IMG/VR virus record: IMGVR_UViG_2693429621_000004 | Strand: one strand, 5' to 3' | Source of the DNA: a virus | Lineage: Duplodnaviria; Heunggongvirae; Uroviricota; Caudoviricetes | DNA length: 17,206 bases | In this document: positions 1-17,003 of the stretch, piece after piece | Layout: each line of letters opens with the position of its first letter | Numbering within the stretch: position 1 is the first letter of the stretch | Program-made: the position numbers and the translations under genes | Notes under the pieces: generated by a model | Database searches by the model: none | What the model saw: only the letters and a program-made list of their open reading frames with translations | What the model was told of the DNA's origin: nothing

Positions 1-441
1 CCAGCCACCGTTACGCTGTATCTGAACCAGCAGGCGGACTTCCGACGGATTCCGGTCACCCTTTGAGGTGGTTTCCACCAGTGCCTGCACACCGAAGGTC
101 AGGCGCAGACGGTCGATGTTTGCCGACGTGATGGTCCGGGTGATCGGCGTGTCATATTTCACTTCCGTACCCAGCACCGTCTCGGAGCCGGAGGATTCAA
201 AACCCTCCGGCGGTGTCTGCTCCTGCTCACCTGCACGGAACACCACCGTAACACCGGAAAAGTTTGTCTTCCCCTCGCTGTCCAGGACCGGCGTACCGTT
301 CAGCAGCACGCTTTTTAATCCATCCACCGGACCGTCAACCGGCCCTTCGCTGATGGCATCAATCACACTCAGCAACTGCGTGGATTTCAGGTTGTCCTTC
401 GCTTCGCGCGGGGTATGCCCCTTACTGCTGCCTTTACCCAT
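1..441 (-). CDS. J: Tail tip / host-specificity protein J, N-terminal 147 codons only (gene continues beyond the left window edge)
   Basis: Reverse complement from 441 reads ATG GGT AAA GGC AGC AGT AAG GGG CAT... = MGKGSSKGHTPREAKDNLKSTQLLSVIDAISEGP..., which matches the lambda gpJ N-terminus as recalled. It starts 60 bp downstream of the I stop, as in lambda. The track's plus-strand ORF 68..457 is its antisense shadow. Confidence 0.9.
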   Translation of the reverse strand, partial: MGKGSSKGHTPREAKDNLKSTQLLSVIDAISEGPVDGPVDGLKSVLLNGTPVLDSEGKTNFSGVTVVFRAGEQEQTPPEGFESSGSETVLGTEVKYDTPITRTITSANIDRLRLTFGVQALVETTSKGDRNPSEVRLLVQIQRNGGW

Positions 442-501
442 TCCTCACGCTCCATAAACGACAAAACCGCCCGCAGGCGGTTTCACATAAAACATTTTGC
501 A

Positions 502-1143
502 TCAGCGACCAATCACCACAACCTGACCACCATCCCCTTCGTCTGCCGTGCTGATCTCCTGAGAAACCACACGTGACCCCACGCGCATTTCACCGTACAG
601 AACGGGCAGAACATTGCCCTGGGCAACCATGTTATCCAGTGACGAGAAATACGTGTTCTGCTTACCGTTATCCGTTGTCTGTGTACGGGGAGTTCTGGCT
701 TTCGGTGCCAGCATCTGTGCAACACCGCCAAGCGTCATACTGGCACCGAGAGAAAACAGCAGATTACTCGCCATAATTCCTACCCCCGGCATCCATATAG
801 CAACCGCCATAACAGCCGCCCCCAGCACCGCCTGAAACACACCGCCACTTTTAGCTCCCACCAGACGCGGTACTATGTGGATCACTGCACCATTTGCCAG
901 CGGCTCATTAAGACGGGCAGACAATTCGGTTTCACCTGCATCACGCCCGGCAATGCGCACCTGATACCAGCCGTCACTCAGTTTCTGACGAAACGCCGGG
1001 AGCTGTGTGGCCAGTGCCCGGATGGCTTCAGCCCCCGTTTTCACACGAAGGTCGATGCGGCGACCAAATCGTTGTAAATCCCCGTAAAGGCAGATGCGCG
1101 CCATGCCCGGTGACGCCAGAGGGAGTGTGTGCGTCGCTGCCAT
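502..1143 (-). CDS. I: Tail tip assembly protein I (213 aa)
   Basis: ORF track 502..1143(-). The N-terminus MAATHTLPLASPGMARICLYGDLQRFGRRIDLRVKTGAEAIRAL and C-terminus ...VVSQEISTADEGDGGQVVVIGR are lambda gpI-like. The start overlaps the 3' end of K by about 100 bp, as in lambda. Confidence 0.85.
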   Translation of the reverse strand: MAATHTLPLASPGMARICLYGDLQRFGRRIDLRVKTGAEAIRALATQLPAFRQKLSDGWYQVRIAGRDAGETELSARLNEPLANGAVIHIVPRLVGAKSGGVFQAVLGAAVMAVAIWMPGVGIMASNLLFSLGASMTLGGVAQMLAPKARTPRTQTTDNGKQNTYFSSLDNMVAQGNVLPVLYGEMRVGSRVVSQEISTADEGDGGQVVVIGR

Positions 1144-1971
1144 TTGTCGGTATACCTCTCTCGTTTGCTCAGTTGTTCAGGAATATGGTGCAGCAGCTCG
1201 CCGTCACCACAGTAAATGGCGGCATGATTCGGCACCGATGAACCAAAACAGCACAGCAGCACATCGCCCGGCTGCGCCGCTGACAACGGCACCTGATACA
1301 GCCCTGTGGCCTCCAGATTATCCAGATAGAGATTCTGACCGTGACGCCACCAGTCATCCTCACGATGAAAATCCGGCATCTCAATCCCCGCCAGATGGTA
1401 AGCATCCCGGAACAGCGTGTAACAGTCCGTCANNNNNNCACAGCAGCACATCGCCCGGCTGTGCCTCTGTCAGTGCGACACGGTAAAAACCCGTCACCTC
1501 CATATTGTCAAGATAGAGATTCTGACCGTTACGCCACCAGTCATCCCCGCGATGAAAATCCGGCATCTCAATCCCTGCCAGATGATAAGCATCCCGGAAC
1601 AGCGTGTAACAGTCCGTCACCCCGTGCTCAAAGCGCCGCCCGGTAAGATGTGGCACACAGCGGAACTTGTGAATCGCCCCCCGGCAGACCAGCCACCACG
1701 GCAAATCACTCTGCACCTGCAGCCGCCGGTCGGCCTCACTCAGCCAGGGCAGACCACCGGGGTGGCTGTGGACCAGTGCCACAATCTCACCCTGCATCTC
1801 TGCCTGCAGCCAGTCTTCCGGCGACATACGGAAATACGCCTCCGGCTCACCGGAGATATTCACGCAGGGGAAATATCTTTCCCCCTCCGGCGTTCTTACC
1901 ACGAAGCCGCACGACTCCGCTGGAGCACATCGCCGGGCGTGCGCCAGAATCGCTGATTCTGTCTCTGTCAT
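1041..1971 (-). CDS. K: Tail tip assembly protein K (JAMM/MPN + NlpC/P60 domains); reading frame split in two by an N-gap and a flanking 181-bp duplication, most likely an assembly artefact (intact gene would be about 247 codons)
   Basis: Track ORFs 1381..1971(-) and 1041..1451(-) together read as one K protein. The first carries the exact JAMM motif HSHPGGLPWLSEAD (H-x-H-x7-S-x2-D) with upstream ESCGFV. Both carry the NlpC/P60-type segment TDCYTLFRDAYHLAGIEMPDFHR..QPGDVLL. The ATG at 1971 sits 5 nt after the L stop. Confidence 0.8.
1252..1619. repeat. Direct repeat, 2 x 181 bp (1252..1432 and 1439..1619), about 87% identical, flanking a 6-N gap
   Basis: Both copies begin cacagcagcacatcgcccggctg and end gcatcccggaacagcgtgtaacagtccgtca. 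By hand count there are about 24 mismatches, concentrated in the first 70 bp of each copy. Confidence 0.9.
1433..1438. other. Assembly gap (NNNNNN)
   Basis: Six ambiguous bases seen directly in the sequence. Confidence 0.99.
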
Positions 1972-1976
1972 GGGAT

Positions 1977-2675
1977 TTACTGCGAAAGTTTGTTAATGGA
2001 AAGGAAGCCGCCAAAGTTGCCGACGTTATTGCGAAACTTACAGCCACTCAGGCATTTGCTGCATTTATCCTTCGTGATGTCGGACGTTGGCTGGTCATAT
2101 TCATCCGCGACCGCCGGACCGTGATAACCGCACTCATCGCCGCGATAGGTCCAGGTGCAGGTGTTGGCCAGCATGATACGTCCCGGAAAAACAGCGCCAT
2201 CTGTTTCCGTCGGCGTGGACAGTACAAAAGAGGCACTCACCGCGCTCAGTTCGCTGCACTGCTCAATGCGCCAGCGGCTGATCACCTCCTGCTCCGGATC
2301 GGCGTCACTGTTTCCGTTGACGAAGTTCACCGCATCCAGAAAACGGGCGTAAACCTTACGCCGGACCACCGTTCCGCCGACCAGACTCTGTAGATCTTCC
2401 GCCATCCCGGTGACCATACCGTACAGGTTAGAAACCATCAGCGTGGGGCGCGTACTGGTGCCTTTGCCATTCAGTTCAAAACCACTCCCCTGAATGGGAT
2501 ACGGCTGATACTGTCGCCCCTGCCAGGTGACCGGCTCACCTTTTTCGTTCTGCTCATTACAGAAAAAATAACGTTCTCCACCGACCTCTGTCAGATCGAT
2601 TTCCCAGAGCACCACGCTGGCCGACTGCTCCGCACGGGTGCATTCATTCAGTGTTTCCTGCCGGATATCCTGCAT
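1977..2675 (-). CDS. L: Tail tip assembly protein L (232 aa), with C-terminal Cys cluster
   Basis: ORF track 1977..2675(-). Same length as lambda gpL. The C-terminal cysteine-rich segment CGYHGP...CSKCLSGCKF is consistent with the Fe-S-binding region reported for gpL. Confidence 0.9.
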   Translation of the reverse strand: MQDIRQETLNECTRAEQSASVVLWEIDLTEVGGERYFFCNEQNEKGEPVTWQGRQYQPYPIQGSGFELNGKGTSTRPTLMVSNLYGMVTGMAEDLQSLVGGTVVRRKVYARFLDAVNFVNGNSDADPEQEVISRWRIEQCSELSAVSASFVLSTPTETDGAVFPGRIMLANTCTWTYRGDECGYHGPAVADEYDQPTSDITKDKCSKCLSGCKFRNNVGNFGGFLSINKLSQ

Positions 2676-3004
2676 CAGTTCACCACCTGTTCAAACTCTG
2701 CGCTGAACTCAACACGCAGCATACTGACCCGCGACGACCATTTTGCGCAGGTCACCTTTATCTGCCGCCACTCATAAGGCGGCGTCCACAGAAAGGCTTT
2801 CCAGCCCCCGTGCTCTTCCAGAAACGACTCCAGTACCATGGCCTCCTCACGGGGGACAGAAAGCGTCACGCTGTACGTTTTCAGGTTGGCATTCAGCCCG
2901 GCAGGCGCTCGCTGGGAATAGCCATCACCAAAGCGCACCTTTCTTACAGAAGGGGCCGAAGCCACATCCATACCGGGTTTCACTTTCCAGCGGAAGGTTT
3001 TCAT
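2675..3004 (-). CDS. M: Tail tip assembly protein M (109 aa)
   Basis: ORF track 2675..3004(-), MKTFRWKVKPGMDVASAPSVRKVRFGDGYSQRAP.... Same length and position as lambda gpM; start overlaps the H stop by 4 bp. Confidence 0.9.
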   Translation of the reverse strand: MKTFRWKVKPGMDVASAPSVRKVRFGDGYSQRAPAGLNANLKTYSVTLSVPREEAMVLESFLEEHGGWKAFLWTPPYEWRQIKVTCAKWSSRVSMLRVEFSAEFEQVVN

Positions 3005-5562
3005 CGTCCACCTCCGGAGAACAGGCCACCATCACGCATCTGTGTCTGAATTTCATCACGGGCACCCTTGCGGGCCATGTCATACACGGCCTTCATCATC
3101 TGTGGACCTGGCAGACCATTCGTACCGTCGTTCTGAATCACCACGTGATTGTTCTGATTAAAATTAATGCCTTCAGCCCGCCGCATCTGCGCCGGACTTC
3201 CGGCACCGCCCACATAACCACCTTCCGCATAGCCGCGCATCAGCCGGTAGAGATTCCCCACGCCAATCCGGCTGGTTGCCTCCTTCGTGAAGACAAATTC
3301 ACCACGGTGAACAATCCCCGCTGGCTCATATTTGCCGCCGGTTCCCGTAAATCCCCCGGTTGCAAAATGGAATTTCACCGCAGCGGCCTGAATGGCTGTA
3401 CCACCTGACGCGGATGCGCCGCCACCAACAGCCCCGCCAATGGCGCTGCCGATACTCCCGACAATCCCCACCATTGCCTGCTTAAGCAGAATTTCTGTCA
3501 TCATGGACAGCACGGAGCGGGTGAAGCTGCGCCAGTTCTGTTCACTGCCGGTCAGCATCGCCGCCATATTCTGTGCAATACCATCAAAGGTCTGCGTGGC
3601 TGCACTTTTAACCTGTGACATACTGTCCGTGGCGCTCTCTTCCCACTCACTCCAGCCGGACTTCAGGCCTGCCATCCAGCTCCCGCGAAGCTGGTCTTCA
3701 GCCGCCCAGGTCTTTTTCTGCTCTGACATGACGTTATTCAGCGCCAGAGGATTATCGCCATACTGTTCCTTCAGGCGCTGTTCCGTGGCTTCCCGCGCTG
3801 CCTGCCGGTCAGTCAGCCCCCGGTTTTTCGCATCAATGGCTGCCCGTTTTGCCCGTTGCTGCTGTGCGAATTTATCCGCCTGCTGCGCCAGCGCATTCAG
3901 GTGCTCCTGATACGTAACCTTGTCACCAAGTGCAGCCAGCTGGCGTTTGTACTCCAGCGTCTCGTCTTTATGCGCCAGCAGGGATTTCTCCTGTGCGGAC
4001 AGCTGGCGACGTTGTGCCGCCTCCTCCAGTACCGCGAACTGACTTTCTGCCTTCCACAAATCCCGGCGCTGCTGGCTGATTTTCTCATTCGCTCCGGCAT
4101 GCTTCTCCAGCGTCCGGAGTTCTGCCTGAAGCGTCAGCAGGGCCGCATGAGCACTGTCTTCCTGACGATCGCCCGCATACACCTTCACGCCGGACTGTTT
4201 CGGCTTTTTCAGCGTCGCTTCATAATCCTTTTTCGCCGCCGCCATCAGCGTGTTGTAATCTGCCTGCAGGATTTTTCCGTCTTTCAGTGCCTTGTTCAGT
4301 TCTTCCTGACGGGCGGTATATTTCTCCAGCGGCGTCTGCAGCCGTTCGTAAGCCTTCTGCGCCTCTTCGGTATATTTCAGCCGTGACGCTTCGGTATCGC
4401 TCTGCTGCTGCGCATTTTTGTCCTGTTGACGCTGTTGATCTACCCTCTTTTGGGCTGCATCCCGCTCCAGGCGTTTTTTTTCACGATCATCCCAGTAACG
4501 CGCCCGTGCTTCATCGTTAACGAAATAATCATCCTTGCGCAGATTCCAGATGTCGTCTGCTTTCTTAAACGCAGCCTCTGCCTTAATCAGCATCTCCTGC
4601 GCGGTATCAGGACGACCAATATCCAGCACCGCATCCCACATGGATTTGAATGCACGTGCAGTCCTGTCTGCCCAGGTCTCCAGCGTGCCCATGTTCTCTT
4701 TCAGGCGGCGGGTCTGGTCATCAAACCCTTTCGTTGCGGCCTCGTTCGCCGCCTGCAATGCCCCGGCTTCATCGCCGGAACGCTGCAACTGAGCAACATA
4801 CGCAATCTGCTCCGCCGTCACGTTATGGAACTGGCGTGCCATCGCCGTCAGCCCCGACGTCGGGTCTGTGGTCAGCTTCCCGAAGGCTTCAGCGACCTTG
4901 TCCACCTCCACGCCGGATGCATAGGAGAAACGCGCCACACTCTGGCTGATGGACGCAATCTGAGCCTCACCGCTTACCCCCGCCTTAACCAGTGCGCTGA
5001 GTGACTCGCTGGTCTGGTTAAACGTCAGCCCTGCCGCCTGCCCGGCTCTGGACAGGACCAGCATACGATCTGCCGTCAGTCCCGCCTGATTACCGGAAAG
5101 GACCAGCGTTTTGTTGAAATCGGACAGGGTTGAGTTGCCCTGATACCAGGCATACGCCAGCGCACCGGTCGCCACCGCCAGCGAGGTGGCCCCCACCATC
5201 GGCAGGGTGATCGCGCCGGCAAGCCCCCTGAACATGGGGATCATCCCGCCGAAGGAGTCCTTAACCTGACCACCCTGTTGCAGCAGGATCAGCCAGGGAT
5301 TCTGCCCCCCTGCAAGCTGCGTGGCCACGTCGGTGAACTGTGCAGGCAGCATACGCATGGCGGCTTTATACTGCCCGACGGAAATCCCCGCTTTCTGTGC
5401 AGCCAGCGCCTGTCGGCTCAGCGACTGTTCAACGACTGCCGCTGTTTTTTTCGCATCACTTTCCGTACCGGAAAAATGACGCCTGACTCTGGCCATCTGC
5501 TCGTCAAATCTGGCCGCATCCAGACTCAAATCAACGACCAGATCGCCTACCGGTTCAGCCAT
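3001..5562 (-). CDS. H: Tail tape measure protein H (853 aa)
   Basis: ORF track 3001..5562(-). Length is identical to lambda gpH. It has a long Ala/Gln/Lys/Glu-rich presumably helical central region, a Gly-rich hydrophobic segment (IGGAVGGGASASGG) and the C-terminus ...RDGGLFSGGGR. Confidence 0.95.
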   Translation of the reverse strand: MAEPVGDLVVDLSLDAARFDEQMARVRRHFSGTESDAKKTAAVVEQSLSRQALAAQKAGISVGQYKAAMRMLPAQFTDVATQLAGGQNPWLILLQQGGQVKDSFGGMIPMFRGLAGAITLPMVGATSLAVATGALAYAWYQGNSTLSDFNKTLVLSGNQAGLTADRMLVLSRAGQAAGLTFNQTSESLSALVKAGVSGEAQIASISQSVARFSYASGVEVDKVAEAFGKLTTDPTSGLTAMARQFHNVTAEQIAYVAQLQRSGDEAGALQAANEAATKGFDDQTRRLKENMGTLETWADRTARAFKSMWDAVLDIGRPDTAQEMLIKAEAAFKKADDIWNLRKDDYFVNDEARARYWDDREKKRLERDAAQKRVDQQRQQDKNAQQQSDTEASRLKYTEEAQKAYERLQTPLEKYTARQEELNKALKDGKILQADYNTLMAAAKKDYEATLKKPKQSGVKVYAGDRQEDSAHAALLTLQAELRTLEKHAGANEKISQQRRDLWKAESQFAVLEEAAQRRQLSAQEKSLLAHKDETLEYKRQLAALGDKVTYQEHLNALAQQADKFAQQQRAKRAAIDAKNRGLTDRQAAREATEQRLKEQYGDNPLALNNVMSEQKKTWAAEDQLRGSWMAGLKSGWSEWEESATDSMSQVKSAATQTFDGIAQNMAAMLTGSEQNWRSFTRSVLSMMTEILLKQAMVGIVGSIGSAIGGAVGGGASASGGTAIQAAAVKFHFATGGFTGTGGKYEPAGIVHRGEFVFTKEATSRIGVGNLYRLMRGYAEGGYVGGAGSPAQMRRAEGINFNQNNHVVIQNDGTNGLPGPQMMKAVYDMARKGARDEIQTQMRDGGLFSGGGR

Positions 5563-6393
5563 ACCGGACTCCTCCTGCGATCCCTTCTGATACTGTCATC
5601 AGCATTACGTCATCCTCCGTCATGTCCGCCACATCCGGGGAAGCGGGGATAACTTCATTCCCGTCCGGGCCAAAGCGGACACCTCCGGCAAGCCCTGCCG
5701 CTTTCTGCATCAGCACATCATCTTCAGGCTCTTCGTCAGCCTCGCGCCGGTTCAGCAGACTGAAATCCAGCGGATGCATCTCCGGATCGCTGAAAAACAG
5801 GCTGAGCACGGTGTACGTCAGCCCGGAAAAGTGCATATCCAGCAGAACATCATGAAAATAATGGGTACTGTAAAAGCGGTGCCAGTCGGCATACTCCGTG
5901 GATGACATCCCGGCAAGCATGGCGCGCCAGTCGGGTCGCCCCATCTCACGCGCCAGTTTCAGGGCAAAACTCAGCTCACCGTCGAACACTTTCCCGCAGA
6001 AACAGGCTCTGCAGGCCCGGCGTCCTCTGCCTGTTCAGGAGCATCATTCACCACAAACTCATACATACCGGACAGCCGGTACACCACGTTTTCAGCATGA
6101 GAAATTGCCTCTGTGGGCCAGGTGGTAAGCACTTCCTGCTCAATCTGTTTAACGGCTTCATTCATGGACGGCATCTGCGTCTTCTTCGGATGGTTATGCC
6201 ACAGGGACATCGCAACCACAAAAGCGCCGGTTCTGATGGCGTCTTCCACAGTAAACTTCCGGTTGCTGTCTGACTCCGCCTGTTCTGCCTGCCGTTTCAT
6301 CAGGTCGAGATGCTCAATACGCTGCAGGGCTGACAGTTCAGAAAGCGTGACGGTCACACCGTTATGTTCAAATGATTCGGTTTTCAGGAACAT
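5555..6393 (-). CDS. GT: Tail assembly chaperone G-T fusion made by programmed -1 ribosomal frameshift (T frame 5555..5989)
   Basis: Slippery heptamer G GGA AAG on the minus strand (plus coords 5989..5995) lies 8 codons before the G stop. The -1 frame from it reads GKVFDGELSFALKLAREMG... with no stop until 5555, overlapping the H start. Confidence 0.85.
5971..6393 (-). CDS. G: Tail assembly chaperone G (140 aa)
   Basis: ORF track 5971..6393(-), MFLKTESFEHNGVTVTLSELSALQRIEHL...SAGKCSTVS. A GGAGAG Shine-Dalgarno lies upstream of the ATG at 6393. Confidence 0.9.
   Translation of the reverse strand: MFLKTESFEHNGVTVTLSELSALQRIEHLDLMKRQAEQAESDSNRKFTVEDAIRTGAFVVAMSLWHNHPKKTQMPSMNEAVKQIEQEVLTTWPTEAISHAENVVYRLSGMYEFVVNDAPEQAEDAGPAEPVSAGKCSTVS
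5989..5995 (-). promoter_or_regulatory. Programmed -1 frameshift slippery site GGGAAAG (G/T)
   Basis: Plus-strand ctttccc at 5989..5995 is the reverse complement of GGGAAAG. G frame reads GCG GGA AAG TGT; the -1 frame reads GGG AAA GTG TTC. Confidence 0.85.
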
Positions 6394-6408
6394 CGCTGAC
6401 TCTCCGGA

Positions 6409-7149
6409 TTAACTGGCGGTGACGTTGATTTCTGCAACCGCAGCAAACTCACCATTACCAGATACGACCGGAATGTTGACCTTGCCTGCAGCAACACCTT
6501 TCACGGTGATGGTCATACCACTGACCGACACGGTGGCTTTTGTTTTATCCGCAGACACCGCACGGAAGCTCTTGTCGGTTGCGCCATCCGGCTGGAATGC
6601 CACGGTCAGCGTGGTGCTCTGCCCTTTCACTACGGAAGCACTGGCGGGTGTCACCGTCATGCCGGTCGTCGCCGTCACCGTGCTGCGATCTTCTGCCATC
6701 GACGGACGTCCCACATTGGTGACCTTCACCGTGCGGGTAATCACCTCCTTCGCCGTCACCGCCTTACCGATACTGCTGACCCAGCCACGGAACACATCGA
6801 CCGTGCCGTTCGGGAAGCGGATTTTATAGGCACGGGTATCACCTTCATTAAACCACGCCAGCAGCGCCTGCTGCCCCTGCTCTCCGGGCATCCACGCCAG
6901 CGTGAAGCTGGTATCTCCGGCAGATTTCTGCCCCTGCCCGGTCGCAGTCCAGTCTGCATCTTCATCATCGAGATAGCTGTCGTCATAGGACTCAGCGGTC
7001 AGTTCGCCGGGCGTCAGGTCTTTAACTTTTGCCAGACGCGACCAGTCAACGTCTGAAAGCGGGTTCGCATAAGGGTCACCGCTCCCCTTATAAACCCACA
7101 GGGTGGTCCCGGCACCTTTCACCGGCATTGTAGGATTTGGTACAGGCAT
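6409..7149 (-). CDS. V: Major tail tube protein V (246 aa), with C-terminal Ig-like region
   Basis: ORF track 6409..7179(-). The probable start is the internal ATG at 7149 ([22 protein letters not shown]...), preceded by GAGGA and lying 8 nt after the U stop. Confidence 0.9.
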
Positions 7150-7156
7150 AGCGTCC

Positions 7157-7552
7157 TCACATTTCATAGATAATGACATAAGTCAGATCGGCTGAACTCC
7201 ACAGGCCCGCATCATCGTCGCGCCGGTAGTCATAGCCGCTGGCCACCATACTGGTGATCAAATCTGACAGTGCCGGGATATCGCTCATCACCGGATAAAT
7301 CCGGGACTCCATCCACGAATCCAGCTCTGAATCCGGCACCTGAGCAGGCAGGAAAACTTCAATATGCAGCTCCGCCTGCCAGGTATCGCTGTCCAGCTCT
7401 TCGCCCGTGTATTCAGCGCCGGTGAGATAAACGGCAATTGCCGGAAAATCTTCCTCATCAAAAACAGCGGGGCGACCATCAAAAAGCGTCGCCCCGGTGT
7501 CATGCTTCTCCAGTGCATCCAGTACGGCTGCACGGAGTTCAGTATGTTTCAT
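7157..7552 (-). CDS. U: Tail terminator protein U (131 aa)
   Basis: ORF track 7157..7552(-), [45 protein letters not shown].... Length equals lambda gpU; 4-bp overlap with the Z stop. Confidence 0.9.
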
Positions 7553-8127
7553 CGCTTTATTACCATTCTCAGTTGATGCTGCAGCGCATAGCCCAGCTCT
7601 TTCGGAAGACGTTCACGCCGTATCCGTTCAATATTCTGTTTAAACGCCGTGGTCAGCGGCACCGCCATCGGGATTTTCACCACATCAATGGGGTAACGGT
7701 TTTTCCCGGCCACACGCTGCATAACATGCCACCGGCCGTTTTTCAGTTGCTGAATAAACGCGCCGGGAATACGACGGTTACCCACCACAAGCACGCTGCC
7801 GCCACCTTTCAGGGATGAACGCTGCCCCTTTTTATGACGCCTGCGGCGGGACAGGACAACCCGCGCATTACCCAGCTTGATTACGGGCAAATCCCCCCGG
7901 TTAACTTTGATTCTGGCCTGCGGATTTTTGACCGTGGCCCTTTTCAGCCTGGCCCTTTCCTTTACCAGTTTCCGGCGTACCTTTGTCTCACGGGCAACCT
8001 GTGACGCAGACTGCGATATCGCGGATGAAGCAACGCGGTTAATGGCCATTGCGGCGGCACCGGGCACCGCCGTTTTGCTGATACGGCTGAGGTTTTCAAC
8101 GGCCTGCTCAAGACCTTTTATGGCCAT
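7549..8127 (-). CDS. Z: Tail completion protein Z (192 aa)
   Basis: ORF track 7549..8127(-). Length and position equal lambda gpZ. Confidence 0.9.
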   Translation of the reverse strand: MAIKGLEQAVENLSRISKTAVPGAAAMAINRVASSAISQSASQVARETKVRRKLVKERARLKRATVKNPQARIKVNRGDLPVIKLGNARVVLSRRRRHKKGQRSSLKGGGSVLVVGNRRIPGAFIQQLKNGRWHVMQRVAGKNRYPIDVVKIPMAVPLTTAFKQNIERIRRERLPKELGYALQHQLRMVIKR

Positions 8128-8138
8128 ACATCCCCCTT

Positions 8139-8492
8139 TCAGCGGCGACGGTTAACGGCAGGCGGTACGCCCCGTCCAAGCCAGAGATGACAACTTCCGC
8201 CATCATCCGGCGAAACCCGATCTACCCAGAAATTTTCCTCACCGATGGTCAGCGTGTCTCCACGCCGCAGCTGCCGCACCTCATCAGTCCGGACAAACAG
8301 GGACGGGCTGGAGCCTTCAACGCGCACGCCCTGTCCGGCATAGCTGATATTTTCAGGGTCATCAAAAACACCACGTATCACCGCACCTGACTGCTCACCG
8401 GATGTCATGGTGGCTGACGTTCCCATGTACCCGCGTATCGTTTCATCGGCGCGGGCAATGGCAGCATCGAACAGGTTATCGAAATCAGCCAC
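8139..8492 (-). CDS. FII: Head-tail connector / head completion protein FII (117 aa)
   Basis: ORF track 8139..8492(-), MADFDNLFDAAIARADETIRGYMGTSATMTSGEQSGAV.... Length equals lambda gpFII. Confidence 0.9.
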   Translation of the reverse strand: MADFDNLFDAAIARADETIRGYMGTSATMTSGEQSGAVIRGVFDDPENISYAGQGVRVEGSSPSLFVRTDEVRQLRRGDTLTIGEENFWVDRVSPDDGGSCHLWLGRGVPPAVNRRR

Positions 8493-8503
8493 AGCGCCTC
8501 CCG

Positions 8504-8902
8504 TTATTGCATTCTGGCCAGGCCGCGCTCTGTCATTTCGGCTGCCACACCGGCAGAGACACGAAACGCCGTTCCCGGCAGCACAAATGCCACAGGTTTA
8601 TCCCGCGTGGCGTGAAGTGCATCAGTATGCAGCGTCACCAGTGCCACGACCGTGACCAGTTCAGCCGTATCCTGAATCACGGTATCCGGCTGCGCTGATA
8701 CCACCTCATTTTCATGCCCGGTCAGCACATTTTCCCGGCTGAGAGGGGTGTCCTGACCGGCAGTTTCATCCGTGTCATCAAGCTCTTCTTCCAGCTCTGC
8801 CACACGAAGCGCCAGTTCTTCTTTCGTTCCCGTCAAACTGACATCGCGGTTCAATTGCTCACCCAGCTCCTGAAGACGGGCAATCAGTTCATCTTTCGTC
8901 AT
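8504..8902 (-). CDS. FI: DNA-packaging accessory protein FI (132 aa)
   Basis: ORF track 8504..8941(-) is 145 aa. The internal ATG at 8902 (MTKDELIARLQ...) has a strong GGAGGA Shine-Dalgarno 5 nt upstream and gives the lambda gpFI length of 132 aa. Confidence 0.85.
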   Translation of the reverse strand: MTKDELIARLQELGEQLNRDVSLTGTKEELALRVAELEEELDDTDETAGQDTPLSRENVLTGHENEVVSAQPDTVIQDTAELVTVVALVTLHTDALHATRDKPVAFVLPGTAFRVSAGVAAEMTERGLARMQ

Positions 8903-8943
8903 GAACTCCTCCACAGAGAGAAAATGGCCCCGAAGGGCCATGA

Positions 8944-9969
8944 TTACGCCAGTTGAACGGACACGAACTCATCAGGATCAGCCAGCAGCATCAGCGGTGC
9001 TGACTGAATCATGGTGAACTCACGCGCCGGATCGCCGGTGGTCACCCAGTTTTTCGGGTAACGGGCAGAAGCGTTAATGCCTTCGCGCTGTGCGTCCGCA
9101 TCCTGAATGCAGCCATAGGTGCGCAGACCGCGAGCCTGAGTGTTCCCCAGCACCATCGTGTTGTCCGGCAGGAAGTTCTTTTTGACGCCGTTTTCCACGT
9201 ACTGTCCGGAATACACGACGATGGCCACATCGCCATACATTCCCTTATAGGACACCGCTTTGCCCAGGTCTTTTACCGCTGTCTCCAGCTCGGAATGAGA
9301 GCCGCGACGGGTATCCAGCTTCTCCTTGACGGCTTTGAAGGAACGGAACAGCGCCCAGCCTTTCGGGTCAAACACGATGATATTCACCACACCGCTGGCG
9401 TTCAGCGCGTAGGCTTCGATATCGTCGGTCGGGTCATACGTGGACTTGTCACGCTTGCTCCACTCCGTGACGCCGGACTGTGTGATGTTGTTCGCCGCAC
9501 TGCGGCCCATATCCACCTCAACCGGATCGAAGGCTTCACCGGTCATGGTGTATTTGCCCTTGAGCACGGCAGAAACTGCCTGCATCTCTTCGACCTGAGC
9601 AATGGCCAGCTCTTCGTCACGCATGTTCTGCATGATGATGCGACGGCGGCGGTAAGCCGGGTCCGCCAGATTCTGCGGATCTTCATCCGGCAGGCGACGC
9701 AGGGTCATCTGCGGATTCACCTCATGCTTGGGTTTGACATATCCCGGCGTAAATTCAGAGGTGGAGCCGCCACGGGAACGGATAACCTCACCGGAAACAA
9801 TCGGCGAAACGTACAGCGCCATGTTTACCAGTCCCGGAATTTGTGAGAGATAGACTTTCTCCGTAGTGAAGGGATAGCTCTCACGGAAAAAGAGACGCAG
9901 AAACAGCGGATCAAACTTAAATTTCTGCTCATTTGCCGCCAGCAGCTGGGCGGTTGTGTACATCGACAT
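8944..9969 (-). CDS. E: Major capsid protein E (341 aa)
   Basis: ORF track 8944..9996(-). The start at 9969 gives MSMYTTAQLLAANEQKFKFDPLFLRLFFRESYPFTTEKVYLSQIPG... (341 aa), matching the lambda gpE N-terminus and length. Confidence 0.95.
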   Translation of the reverse strand: MSMYTTAQLLAANEQKFKFDPLFLRLFFRESYPFTTEKVYLSQIPGLVNMALYVSPIVSGEVIRSRGGSTSEFTPGYVKPKHEVNPQMTLRRLPDEDPQNLADPAYRRRRIIMQNMRDEELAIAQVEEMQAVSAVLKGKYTMTGEAFDPVEVDMGRSAANNITQSGVTEWSKRDKSTYDPTDDIEAYALNASGVVNIIVFDPKGWALFRSFKAVKEKLDTRRGSHSELETAVKDLGKAVSYKGMYGDVAIVVYSGQYVENGVKKNFLPDNTMVLGNTQARGLRTYGCIQDADAQREGINASARYPKNWVTTGDPAREFTMIQSAPLMLLADPDEFVSVQLA

Positions 9970-10024
9970 AAAAAAATCCCGTAAAAAAAGCCACACAGGC
10001 GGCCTTTAGTGATGAAGGGTAAAG

Positions 10025-10357
10025 TTAAACGATGCTGATTGCCGTTCCGGCAAACACGGTCCGTTTTTTCGTCTCGTCGCTGGCAGCCTCCGGCCAGAGC
10101 ACATCCTCATAACGGAACGTGCCGGACTTGTAGAACGTCAGTGTGGTGCTGGTCTGGTCAGCAGCAACCGCAAGAATGCCAACGGCAGCACCGTCGGTGG
10201 TGCCATCCCACGCAACCAGCTTACGGGTGGAGGTGTCCAGCATCAGCGGGGTCATTGCAGGCGCTTTCGCACTCAATCCGCCGGGCGCGGTTGCGGTATG
10301 AGCCGGGTCACTATTGCCCAGCGGCTGGTAATGGGTAAAGGTTTCTTTGCTCGTCAT
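10025..10357 (-). CDS. D: Head decoration protein D (110 aa)
   Basis: ORF track 10025..10363(-). The start at 10357 gives [43 protein letters not shown]..., lambda gpD-like, 110 aa. Confidence 0.9.
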
Positions 10358-10366
10358 AAACATCCC

Positions 10367-10972
10367 TTACACTGGTGTGTTCAGCAAATCGTTAACGGCA
10401 TCAGATGCCGGGTTACCTGCAGCCAGCGGTGCCGGTGCCCCCTGCATCAGACGATCCAGCGCAGTGTCACTGCGCGTCTGTGCACTCTGTGGTGCTGCGG
10501 CCAGAATACGGCGGGCCGTTTCCACGGTCATACCGGGGGTTTCGGCCAGCACGCGTGCCTGTTCTTCGCGTCCGTGAGCCTCCTCACAGTTGAGGATCCC
10601 CATAATGCGACTGTTTTCTGCCGCAACCGCTGCGGTGATCTGCGCGTTCACGTCCGGCTGCGCCGCGCTGGCGTTCTCGCCCTCCGTCGCTTGCACCACG
10701 CCAGTAACGTCAGCCTGCGAAGCAGTGGCTGAAACAGTTGTTGATTGAGTCTCTTTGGTCATTCGCCCTCCTGAGAGACGGGATTTACGTGCATCCAGTG
10801 CATCACGCATGACGGTGATCGCATCGGTACTGTTAACAAGTTCATCAGCCAGTCCGGCATCAATGGCCTCCTGACCGCTGTACACTGCAGCCTCGGTATC
10901 CAGCACAGCCTGCACGGACAGGCCGGTATATGCCGACACCTTCTGTGCAAACATCCGGCGGGTTGCATCCAT
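10367..10972 (-). CDS. Nu3: Scaffolding protein Nu3 (201 aa), nested in-frame in the 3' part of C
   Basis: The in-frame ATG at 10972 reads M D A T R and shares the C stop at 10367. This position corresponds to the lambda Nu3 start by coordinate mapping. Confidence 0.7.
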   Translation of the reverse strand: MDATRRMFAQKVSAYTGLSVQAVLDTEAAVYSGQEAIDAGLADELVNSTDAITVMRDALDARKSRLSGGRMTKETQSTTVSATASQADVTGVVQATEGENASAAQPDVNAQITAAVAAENSRIMGILNCEEAHGREEQARVLAETPGMTVETARRILAAAPQSAQTRSDTALDRLMQGAPAPLAAGNPASDAVNDLLNTPV

Positions 10973-11666
10973 CCGGGACTGCAATGTTTCCCGGACATCA
11001 TCCGGTAGATGGCTGTAGGGGTTGCCATCCACCTTATGGCTGCCGCTGTAAATCAGCGTGATTTCCACGCCCTGTTTCTCCAGTGCAGCGCCGTAATTAC
11101 TGTGAGCCATCATGACGCCGATGGAGCCTGTCCGGGCGGTCTGCGTGACCAGACGCCGGGAGGCGGCACTGGCAAGCAGCTGACCTGCGCTGCAGTTCAT
11201 GTCATTGGCCAGCGCCCATACCGGCTTTATGTCACGCACACGGGCGATGATGTCAGCGCAGTCAAATGCTCCCGCCACCATTCCGCCCGGTGTGTCCATA
11301 TCGAGCAGAATGCCGTCCACCATCGGGTCGCTGGCAGCCTGTTGCAGACGGGCGATAATGCCGTTGTAACCGGTCATCCCCGAGTACGGCTGCAGCGCCC
11401 GCGTCCGGCTGACCAGCGTGCCGGACACCGGCAGCACGGCGATGCCGTTCATTACCTGATAACTGCGGGCCTGTCGTGGTCCGTCATCATCACCGGATAA
11501 CGCCAGCGCCGCGGGTGCCTCTCCGGCAGTCAGGCTGTCGCCGGATACTGCATCCGTCAGGCAGCTGATCCCAAGCTGGCCTGCAAGCGCACAAAAGAAA
11601 ACCCGCGCATAGGCGGGTTCAAGCATCAGCGGCTCATTAAAAGCCATGCTGGCAATATGCGGGAGA

Positions 11667-11686
<20 letters not shown>
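10367..11686 (-). CDS. C: Capsid maturation protease / scaffold C (439 aa, GTG start)
   Basis: ORF track 10367..11821(-). The GTG at 11686 is preceded by AGAGGAGGAGAAGA and gives (M)TAELRNLPHIASMAFNEPLMLEPAYARVFF..., 439 aa as in lambda gpC. The start overlaps the B stop by about 20 bp. Confidence 0.9.
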
Positions 11687-15367
<3,681 letters not shown>

Positions 15368-15393
<26 letters not shown>

Positions 15394-15929: not shown

Positions 15930-16135
15930 AAAAACAGAGAAAGGAAACGACAGAGGCCAAAAAGCCCGTTTTCAGCACCTGTCGTTTCCTTTCTTTTCAG
16001 GGGGTGTTTTAAATAAAAACATTAGGTTACGGCGAAGAAGAACGGAAACGCCTTAAACCGGAAAATTGTCATAAATAGCGAAAACCCGCGCGCCTTCCGC
16101 CCCGTAACCTGTCGGATCGCCGGAAAGGACCCGCA
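15930..16135 (-). other. cos: cos region: cosB (Nu1-binding R1, R2, R3 repeats), cosN and cosQ-like right-end sequence
   Basis: GAAACG-core repeats match the lambda R-site pattern: agagaaaggaaacgacag at 15936..15953 (R1), gtcgtttcctttc at 15981..15993 (R2, inverted) and aacggaaacgcctt at 16041..16054 (R3). gcgaaaacccgcg at 16078..16090 is the reverse complement of lambda left-end bases 13..25. gtaacctgtcggatcgccggaaaggacccgc at 16104..16134 is the reverse complement of the lambda right end. Confidence 0.85.
16091..16102 (-). other. cosN: Predicted 12-nt cohesive-end core of cosN (phage sense GGGCGGAAGGCG)
   Basis: Positioned by ungapped alignment of conserved flanks to lambda. Lambda has GGGCGGCGACCT here; this window differs at 5 of 12 positions. 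Confidence 0.6.
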
Positions 16136-16301
16136 AAATGATAATAATTATCATCTACATGTCACAACGTGCATCTACGCCATCAAACCACGTCAAATAA
16201 TCAATTATGACGCAGGTATCGTATTAATTGATCTGCATCAACTTAACGTAAAAACAACTTCAGACAATACAAATCAGCGACACTGAATACAGGGCAACCT
16301 C

Positions 16302-16535
16302 ATGTCAACGAAGAACAGAACCCGCAGAACAACAACCCGCAACATCCGCTTTCCTAACCAAATGATTGAACAAATTAACATCGCTCTTGTTCAAAAAGGG
16401 TCCGGGAATTTCTCAGCCTGGGTCATTGAAGCCTGCCGCCGGAGACTGTGCTCAGAAAAAAGAGTTTCGCCTGAAGCAAACAAAGAAAAGAGTGACATTA
16501 CTGAATTGCTCAGAAAACAGGTTAGACCAGATTGA
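16302..16535 (+). CDS. Small hypothetical protein (77 aa) with ribbon-helix-helix-like N-terminal pattern; possibly the lambdoid right-end small ORF family (lambda orf next to cos / E. coli YlcI-like, DUF3950)
   Basis: ORF track 16302..16535(+), MSTKNRTRRTTTRNIRFPNQMIEQINIALVQKGSGNFSAWVIEACRRRL.... It has a basic N-terminal tail, a short beta-strand-like RNIRFP, helix-like NQMIEQINIALVQKG, a G-x-N loop and helix-like AWVIEACRRRL. No strong Shine-Dalgarno; family assignment is from memory only. Confidence 0.55.
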   Translation: MSTKNRTRRTTTRNIRFPNQMIEQINIALVQKGSGNFSAWVIEACRRRLCSEKRVSPEANKEKSDITELLRKQVRPD

Positions 16536-16592
16536 AGCAATTTAGATAATCGTGCAGACTACGCCCCCTCATATCACATGGAAGGTACTACA

Positions 16593-17003
16593 ATGGCTCA
16601 GGTTGCCATTTTTAAACAAATATTCGATAAAGTGCGAAATAATTTAAACTATCACTGGTTTTATTCTGAACTAAAACGTCACAATGTCTCACATTACATT
16701 TACTATTTAGCCACAGAGAATATTCATCTTGTTCTTGAAAACGATAATACGGTTTTAATAAAAGGACAGGGTAAGGTTGTAAATGTAAGATTTTCAAAAA
16801 ATAAATGCCTTATAGAAGCCACCTTAAAAGGATTCAAATCAGGAGAGTTATCATTTTACGAATACAGGAAAAATCTTGCTACAGCAGGGGTTTTCAGATG
16901 GATTACAAATATCCACGAAAACAAAAGGTATTACTATACCTTTGATAATTCATTACTCTTTACTGAGAACATACAGAACACTACACAAATATTTCCGCAC
17001 TAA
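16593..17003 (+). CDS. AT-rich hypothetical protein (136 aa from ATG 16593; 141 aa if ATG 16578 is used); possibly the lambdoid right-end orf family (YbcV/DUF1398-like)
   Basis: ORF track 16578..17003(+). The ATG at 16593 has GGAAGG 7 nt upstream. About 32% GC against about 55-58% in the structural genes. It has two similar half-motifs (..[10 protein letters not shown].. and ..[23 protein letters not shown]..). Family assignment is tentative. Confidence 0.55.

Follow-up and report, generated by a model that had tools for sequence, protein, structure and literature searches.

We found that the cos site of a lambda-like prophage, carried by a viral DNA stretch of 17,206 nt (IMG/VR record IMGVR_UViG_2693429621_000004, hereafter the window), has the 12-mer GGGCGGAAGGCG in place of the lambda cohesive-end sequence. 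With a probability that we put at roughly 80%, this site is a functional natural allele of lambda-type cosN, which would be cut by an unchanged terminase at the lambda positions, would be self-compatible, and would have spread by recombination. It is a genuine and fairly ordinary further right-half cosN allele, and not a new packaging system or mechanism. The sequence, its conservation, its distribution and the absence of terminase co-variation are observed, while nick positions, cleavage efficiency and annealing consequences are deduced.

The window and its cos region

Read along its minus strand, the window is a prophage left arm of lambda type. It carries the complete lambda series of 19 genes, Nu1 through I, in unchanged order (Nu1, A, W, B, C, D, E, FI, FII, Z, U, V, G, T, H, M, L, K, I), with 82-100% protein identity and at full length except for the gap-interrupted K. 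Seventeen of these 19 head and tail genes are 93-100% identical to lambda, the exceptions being I (82%) and K (scaffold gap). The homologue of gene I (505-1143, minus strand), which is only 82% identical to its lambda counterpart, lies beyond the N gap, and this low identity may reflect either a mosaic boundary near the tail-tip/host-range module or a different contig beyond the gap.

The gene K homologue is split into two ORFs (1971..1381 and 1451..1041), and two 181-nt copies that are 87% identical to each other (1252-1619) flank six Ns (1433-1438) inside it. We rejected a real 181-bp duplication in gene K, as the copies flank the N run and mark an assembly join, which is no sign of a defective prophage. 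The interruption looks like a scaffold join of two contig ends carrying different K alleles and, because the N run joins two K alleles, the window is a draft assembly, probably from a polylysogen. Since the scaffold is a draft interrupted by Ns in gene K, this particular prophage is only putatively viable. On the other side of cos, two plus-strand genes read toward it from the phage right end, coding for a 77-aa DUF3950 protein of the YlcI/YnfO family (16302-16535) and a 141-aa DUF1398 protein (16578-17003). The DNA of the DUF3950 gene is nearly identical in the lambda right end, where J02459 annotates nothing.

Table 1. Features of the cos region and adjoining terminase genes in the window
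Feature	Position	Strand	Basis
cosQ heptamer GGGTCCT, packaging-termination element	16126..16132	-	exact match to lambda -30..-24, same spacing to cosN
16-bp cosN, CG/GGGCGGAAGGCG/CG in phage sense	16089..16104	-	gap-free alignment to the lambda ends
Predicted 12-nt 5' cohesive end, left GGGCGGAAGGCG, right-end complement cgccttccgccc on the plus strand	16091..16102	-	alignment to lambda
Variant block, cosN bp 7-12	16091..16096	-	AAGGCG vs CGACCT in lambda
cosB R3, Nu1 (TerS) binding site, AGGCGTTTCCGTTCTT	16038..16053	-	exact match to lambda bp 50-65
R3-R2 intervening segment	15996..16037	-	5 substitutions vs lambda (bp 71, 73, 78, 97, 102)
cosB R2, inverted R element	15980..15995	-	exact match to lambda bp 108-123
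cosB R1	15937..15952	-	exact match to lambda bp 152-167
Nu1 (TerS), 181 aa	15368..15913	-	178/181 (98.3%) identical to lambda; Pfam Phage_Nu1, E=2.4e-101
A (TerL), 641 aa, ATPase and endonuclease domains	13468..15393	-	637/641 (99.4%) identical to lambda gpA; Pfam GpA_ATPase, GpA_nuclease

The site is recognizably of lambda type (Table 1). It has the left half GGGCGG with CG dinucleotides flanking both predicted nicks (16104..16089), a cosQ located about 24-30 bp upstream of the predicted top-strand nick, a complex cosB (R3, inverted R2, R1 and the predicted IHF segment) at lambda spacing, and adjoining genes for a Nu1-type TerS and a gpA-type TerL that read away from cos. The coordinates of R3 on lambda (bp 50-65) follow published work (PMC9026076), and the lambda IHF site I1 has been placed between R3 and R2 (PMC4669245), an assignment made here for the segment as a whole and not for single bases. 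Aligned by MAFFT to the lambda cos junction, rebuilt from the two record ends, the minus strand of the window shows no gap from lambda -298 to +136, and no indel to the right of cosN before bp 137. The two sites (lambda J02459 / NC_001416) are therefore collinear, with identical cosQ, R3, R2 and R1, identical cosN bp 1-6 and bp 11, and identical flanking CGs. An earlier note on this DNA had described conserved cos flanks and a terminase nearly identical to that of lambda; the exact matches at cosQ, R3, R2 and R1, together with the protein identities given in Table 1 at equal lengths, bear out both statements.

Cohesive-end sequence

The lambda end was given correctly in that note: J02459 begins with GGGCGGCGACCT, while its last bases are ...CCGACAGGTTACG, and the position and number of the differences had been given rightly as well. 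The cos junction on the minus strand of the window reads ...CCGACAGGTTACG GGGCGGAAGGCG CGCGGGTTTTCG..., with the cohesive-end 12-mer of the prophage at 16102..16091 in the context GTTACG/GGGCGGAAGGCG/CGCGGG; its complement on the plus strand (16091..16102) is cgccttccgccc. The gap-free alignment with J02459 upholds the claim of five differences out of 12 positions, all in the Nu1-proximal half. These are C7A (16096), G8A (16095), A9G (16094), C10G (16093) and T12G (16091), so that bp 7-12 read AAGGCG in the window and CGACCT in lambda, with C11 as the sole unchanged base. The G+C content of the end is kept at 10/12, the same as in lambda. The rotational symmetry of the 16-bp cosN involves four pairs, against five in lambda: 2/11 and the flanking pairs persist, 4/9 is new, and 3/10 and 6/7 have disappeared. 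The loss of pairs 3/10 and 6/7 could lower the efficiency of bottom-strand nicking.

Outside the 12-mer, window and lambda diverge at 19 of 422 positions (4.5%). The probability of meeting by chance five or more differences in any 6-nt interval of the aligned stretch is about 5e-4, which sets the cosN substitution cluster apart from ordinary scatter. A second cluster is found upstream of cosQ at 16173-16178, with four changes in six nucleotides (CGTAGAT in the window, CCTCCAC at lambda -76..-71); here the consensus of 77 related prophages sides with the window, and lambda is the outlier. Block polymorphisms are thus not confined to cosN, since this second cluster lies outside any known cos element.

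The lambda cohesive-end compatibility group, with ends GGGCGGCGACCT, includes lambda, 21, phi80 and 434. As membership rests on a 12-nt end identical to that of lambda, the window prophage, which differs at 5 of 12 positions, stands outside it. It falls instead in the class of natural right-half cosN variants, in which changes are restricted to bp 7-12 while bp 1-6 and the flanking CGs are intact.

Distribution of the variant allele

The earlier note implied that a changed cosN would be a rarity, which is overstated, as GGGCGGAAGGCG turned out to be a widespread allele. A first scan of IMG/VR, with conserved flanks and a free 12-mer, gave 117 canonical sites, two with GGGCGGAAGGCG and one other among the matches listed. 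Scanning directly for the exact variant 12-mer recovered it in 29 IMG/VR contigs, and in at least 51 when the flank requirement was relaxed. Over two targeted IMG/VR scans, AAGGCG makes up 51 of 57 non-canonical sites, and no other non-canonical allele is as frequent with the lambda-type flanks searched; other right halves (CAGGCG, AAGGCT, AAGCGT) are rare.

Of 5426 complete E. coli genomes, 3456 have a lambda-type cos. Counted by genome record, lambda-type cos sites occur in 3472, and at least 86 of these (~2.5%) carry the variant, two of the 86 having been sequence-checked directly. Records were scored as variant from a match of at least 95% to a 64-nt query, a level that implies the variant, since a canonical site reaches at most 59/64. 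One cryptic-clade genome, Escherichia sp. E1V33, also carries the variant 12-mer. It was the only variant in a one-genome-per-species scan, which gave 11 matches only and therefore says little on host range, the other matches being six canonical sites in enteric species and four in non-enteric assemblies. The latter, all canonical, are from Raphidiopsis brookii D9, Aeromicrobium sp. PE09-221, Archangium violaceum Cb vi76 and a 39.8-kb 'plasmid' of Alicyclobacillus fastidiosus (L159, L160, L161 and L162, respectively). Three of the four have lambda-identical flanks and the Archangium site differs just left of cosN; they probably represent lambda control or vector contamination.

We also assembled a sample in which loci were gathered through the Nu1 protein and not through cosN. 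Among its 77 usable loci, 69 are canonical and eight are variant (~10%), with neither intermediates nor other alleles. Across the 52 distinct 300-nt haplotypes of this sample, there is no variation in cosN bp 1-6, bp 11 or either flanking CG, and cosQ is invariant or nearly so, while bp 7-10 and 12 switch as one block. The variant 12-mer occurs behind at least 13 distinct haplotypes of the cosQ-cosN spacer (left flank), and before several types of cosB. Such association of one exact 12-mer with many flank haplotypes, together with its inheritance as a block, points to an established allele that is mobile by recombination.

The variant is carried by elements of three kinds. The first are chromosomal lambda-like prophages, such as the one in the lambda attachment region next to ybhC in E. 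coli APEC E14033. The major capsid gene E of this prophage (L165, NZ_CP126948.1, 26160-38461) contains an element of about 11 kb that encodes an integrase, a primase, an SSB, its own capsid and a decoration protein, and which looks like a capsid-encoding satellite integrating into a structural gene of its helper. In another variant-cosN lambda-like prophage (L134, IMGVR_UViG_2623620496_000002, 1-12500), the portal gene B is truncated at 293 aa by a satellite-like insertion encoding an integrase, a Bro-N protein, an AAA_25 protein and an E-type capsid protein. This insertion ends in a satellite-type cos with a canonical cosN, and the two alleles thus lie 12.3 kb apart on one contig.

The second kind are N15-like phage-plasmids of about 46 kb, namely pAH01-1 (L276, NZ_CP055252.1), PhiR46_1 (L123) and YDC107_1 (L124). 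In pAH01-1, an N15-type replication protein accompanies lambda-type genes from Nu1 through J. All three combine an N15-type plasmid replication/immunity region with a complete lambda-type virion module and a lambda-type cosB, and have the spacer CCGGCAGGCTACG in front of the variant cosN; several further phage-plasmids of this sort are found among the complete E. coli genome matches. PhiR46_1 and YDC107_1 were deposited as phages, the status of PhiR46_1 as a propagated phage resting on its host field (E. coli ECOR13).

The third kind are PICI-like satellites, which possess cosQ and cosN with a differing right flank and a Nu1-family protein, and no TerL. The 33 satellite-context cosN sites from IMG/VR comprise 25 canonical, four AAGGCG, three CAGACG and one CTGACG. 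With 8 of 33 sites non-canonical (L126, L167, L183, L187, L169, L184, L280, L290), these satellites exceed phages in the diversity of the cosN right half. One of them (L126) additionally carries an Abi_C protein and a capsid gene.

Two variant cos sites (L173 and L175) lie on a single metagenome-derived contig of 56,122 bp (IMGVR_UViG_3300045988_113976), which could be a longer-than-unit-length assembly or contain two adjacent elements. A variant cos joined straight to an internal part of gpA (L139) was set aside as a deletion or a chimeric metagenome contig. The 12-mer GGGCGGAAGGCG forms neither the start nor the end of any phage record in the collection; the phage records that start at cos all align from bp 13 on, as expected if their 12-mer is a different one (most likely the canonical).

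The site might instead be a decayed, non-functional cosN of a defective prophage, the substitutions being damage accumulated by DNA that is never packaged. The window is indeed a draft scaffold whose gene K homologue is interrupted at an N gap, and some variant carriers are disrupted, with a satellite in the portal gene (L134) or in the capsid gene (APEC E14033). However, upwards of 50 viral contigs and at least 86 records of complete genomes (two sequence-checked) have the identical 12-mer, with many flanks and in three kinds of elements; a site in decay would not have stayed the same, letter for letter, in settings so diverse. Moreover, no change has touched the critical left half, bp 11 or the flanking CGs, the terminase genes and the other head and tail genes are full length, the break in K coincides with the N run of an assembly join, and the 12-mer occurs in records deposited as phages. 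Decay is accordingly very unlikely.

Terminase and cosN alleles

The comparison took in 63 loci where gpA is complete and 115 where Nu1 is. Carriers of the two alleles have in common, at 100% identity, two gpA and four Nu1 sequences, and no gpA column is diagnostic for either allele across variant and canonical carriers. The strongest gpA association is T466I, with Ile in 14 of 20 variant and 9 of 38 canonical carriers. Codon 466 lies in the endonuclease domain (window 13996-13998), and codes for Ile here and for Thr in lambda and in 29 of the 38 canonical carriers; its association with the allele is probably due to linkage.

The excess of Ile at gpA 466 among variant carriers, shared by the window (I466), is what could be expected from a terminase that co-evolved with a new cosN specificity, so that it and the lambda enzyme would not cut each other's sites. 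This scenario is nevertheless highly improbable. The same gpA and Nu1 proteins adjoin both alleles and no residue is fixed for either, which means that no co-adaptation of the terminase is needed; PICI-like satellites, which lack TerL and depend on a helper, have the canonical, the variant and further alleles following one and the same satellite-type flank; and published tests of the lambda and N15 alleles revealed no cosN specificity (PMC4669245). The lack of gpA/Nu1 co-variation and the several alleles of TerL-less satellites argue that one terminase cuts both alleles, and the variant cosN is probably cut by an unchanged lambda-type terminase. For this allele the support is comparative, the direct tests being those of the N15 allele.

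Published data on lambda-like phages are in line with this. Differences at bp 7-12 are described as 'common' among them, the right half being tolerant to mutation (Feiss et al., 2015, PMC4669245): C11G is without phenotype and the symmetric G2C costs about 10-fold, an asymmetry of the two half-sites that depends on closeness to cosB, while the flanking CGs and cosQ are conserved (PMC4669245). Lambda with the N15 cosN (A9T, T12G) has a normal yield, 132 vs 120 pfu per cell (PMC4669245). We therefore find no support for an effect of the changed cosN on nicking, as proposed in the earlier note, or on packaging by lambda terminase, given that the changes fall in the tolerant bp 7-12, that terminase proteins are shared between alleles, and that the yield of lambda cosN-N15 is normal (PMC4669245). 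Nor is its suggestion of an effect on cross-packaging with lambda cosmids supported: cosmid packaging should be unaffected, as both packaged ends would come from the cosmid's own cos sites.

By analogy with lambda, Nu1 dimers would bind R3, R2 and R1 of the unchanged cosB, and IHF would bend the DNA between R3 and R2. The gpA positioned in this way would nick the two strands 12 bp apart and just outside the conserved CGs, at the same positions as in lambda, with a predicted top-strand nick (minus strand of the window) between 16103 and 16102 and a predicted bottom-strand nick (plus strand) between 16090 and 16091. Virion DNA would then have 12-nt 5' single-stranded ends GGGCGGAAGGCG and CGCCTTCCGCCC. 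With gpA tethered by Nu1 at R3, nicking would be insensitive to sequence in bp 7-12, the cosB-proximal half, and an unchanged lambda-type terminase would for this reason cut both alleles.

One may ask whether the nicks are displaced, giving an overhang that differs from the 12-mer in length or register. The substitutions create an alternating GCGCGCG run across the predicted bottom-strand nick, terminase nicking becomes inaccurate when the geometry is disturbed (PMC4669245), and nick positions are here transferred from lambda. Yet the cosQ-cosN-R3 spacing, which sets the nick position (PMC9026076), equals that of lambda to the base, the left half and the CGs flanking both predicted nick sites are invariant, and N15, with G at bp 12 as well, is annotated with a 5' end of 12 bases. 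We consequently see scarcely any chance of such a displacement, and favour cutting at the lambda positions.

Annealing of the cohesive ends

Nearest-neighbour DNA duplex energies were computed for the 12-nt ends. Pairing of variant with variant (-18.6 kcal/mol) is close to that of lambda with lambda (-19.0 kcal/mol), whereas the lambda/variant heteroduplex reaches only -9.5 kcal/mol, with only the 6 bp of the left half paired; the lambda/N15 heteroduplex has an intermediate value of -15.3 kcal/mol. A mismatch of 2/12 between lambda and N15 ends already reduces viable yield about 4-fold (PMC4669245). The altered annealing with lambda ends that had been proposed earlier is thus supported as an expectation, both by the energies (-9.5 vs -19.0 kcal/mol) and by this published loss. 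The variant end is most likely self-compatible for cyclisation, and is predicted to be poorly compatible with canonical lambda ends.

These values raise the question of whether the two-allele pattern is adaptive, for instance as a second cohesive-end compatibility group that penalises hybrids of co-resident elements, or through some other selection on end sequence. Self-annealing strength is kept while cross-annealing is halved, a 2/12 mismatch has a measurable cost (PMC4669245), and the five changes are inherited as a block (eight variant, 69 canonical, no others), with CAGGCG, AAGGCT and AAGCGT rare elsewhere. On the other hand, recombination that imports a diverged patch also yields a block, and a similar one exists at 16173..16178, outside known cos elements. 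In the published view, bp 7-12 are simply not under selection (PMC4669245). Moreover, one and the same cos, in two copies, normally supplies both chromosome ends, and end mismatches would therefore arise only in rare hybrid concatemers. Adaptation remains an unlikely explanation, and an allele spread by recombination among lambda-like prophages, N15-like phage-plasmids and PICI-like satellites would account for the pattern.

Relation to known cosN variants

Compared with lambda, the cosN of N15 and phiD326 differs at bp 9 and 12, and that of Gifsy-1 at bp 8, 9 and 11 (PMC4669245); we re-read the two ends as GGGCGGCGTCCG in N15 and GGGCGGCAGCGT in Gifsy-1. The N15/phiD326 cosN is a natural right-half variant that has T12G in common with the window allele; its 12-base 5' end has been defined by experiment, and it is cut normally by the lambda TerL. 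However, it has just two changes and keeps C7, G8 and C10, and N15 has a simple cosB and another TerS specificity, unlike the full lambda-type cosB of the window. The Gifsy-1 cosN (CAGCGT) shares A8 and G9 with the window allele and is also changed only in bp 7-12, but it has three changes, keeps C7 and T12, alters bp 11, which is kept in the window, and is associated with a cosB and terminase of phage 21 type. A further inferred right-half variant among lambdoid coliphages is the putative cosN of mEp213 and LLS, GGGCGGCGCGCT (PMC12315714), which differs from lambda at bp 9 and 10 only and accompanies Gifsy-2-like head genes. From lambda itself, the window differs at cosN bp 7, 8, 9, 10 and 12.

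The 12-mer GGGCGGAAGGCG or its complement is absent in a phage context from the open-access literature searched, which gave only unrelated plant and Streptomyces matches. Natural cosN variation in lambda-like phages is the subject of a dedicated survey by Vahanian, Oh, Sippy and Feiss (2017, Virology 509:140), where the allele has possibly been catalogued already. As far as the papers citing it relate, the left cosN bases and the 2 bp flanking each nick are conserved, which the invariant bp 1-6 and flanking CGs seen here match. In the parts of the literature consulted, there are no tests of C7A, G8A, A9G or C10G with lambda terminase, either singly or combined.

Origin of the substitution block

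Two local origins of the block were considered and rejected. A micro-inversion would have replaced GCGACCTC by its reverse complement GAGGTCGC, which matches the observed GAAGGCGC at only 6 of 8 positions. A templated copy of the AAGGCG located just left of R3 (lambda bp 49-54) carries little weight, as a shared 6-mer within 200 bp is expected about once in ten cases. The right halves of Gifsy-1 (CAGCGT) and of the rare IMG/VR sites (CAGGCG, AAGGCT, AAGCGT) share A8 and G9 with the window allele, which suggests stepwise divergence in another lineage followed by import as a recombined patch.

Implications

A search that uses the exact lambda end will miss about 2.5% of the complete E. coli records with a lambda-type cos, and about 10% of the Nu1 clade to which the window belongs. 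The ends of phages, phage-plasmids and satellites carrying the variant should be predicted as GGGCGGAAGGCG. Among the right-half cosN alleles seen here within a cos and terminase otherwise identical to those of lambda, this one is the furthest from lambda, with five changes against two in N15 and three in Gifsy-1. It is therefore a natural test case for the idea that cosB places the bottom-strand nick whatever the sequence, and may be used to gauge how many end mismatches cyclisation tolerates.

Finally, there is a small chance that canonical and AAGGCG ends are two compatibility types maintained within one terminase specificity group, forming a cryptic barrier to the exchange of packaging modules. 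With no more than 6 bp of pairing between unlike ends, most chromosomes cut out of a hybrid concatemer would be unable to cyclise. If real, such a barrier would cover hybrid concatemers between phages, between phages and phage-plasmids, and between phages and satellites, and would shape which lambda-type elements swap packaging modules.
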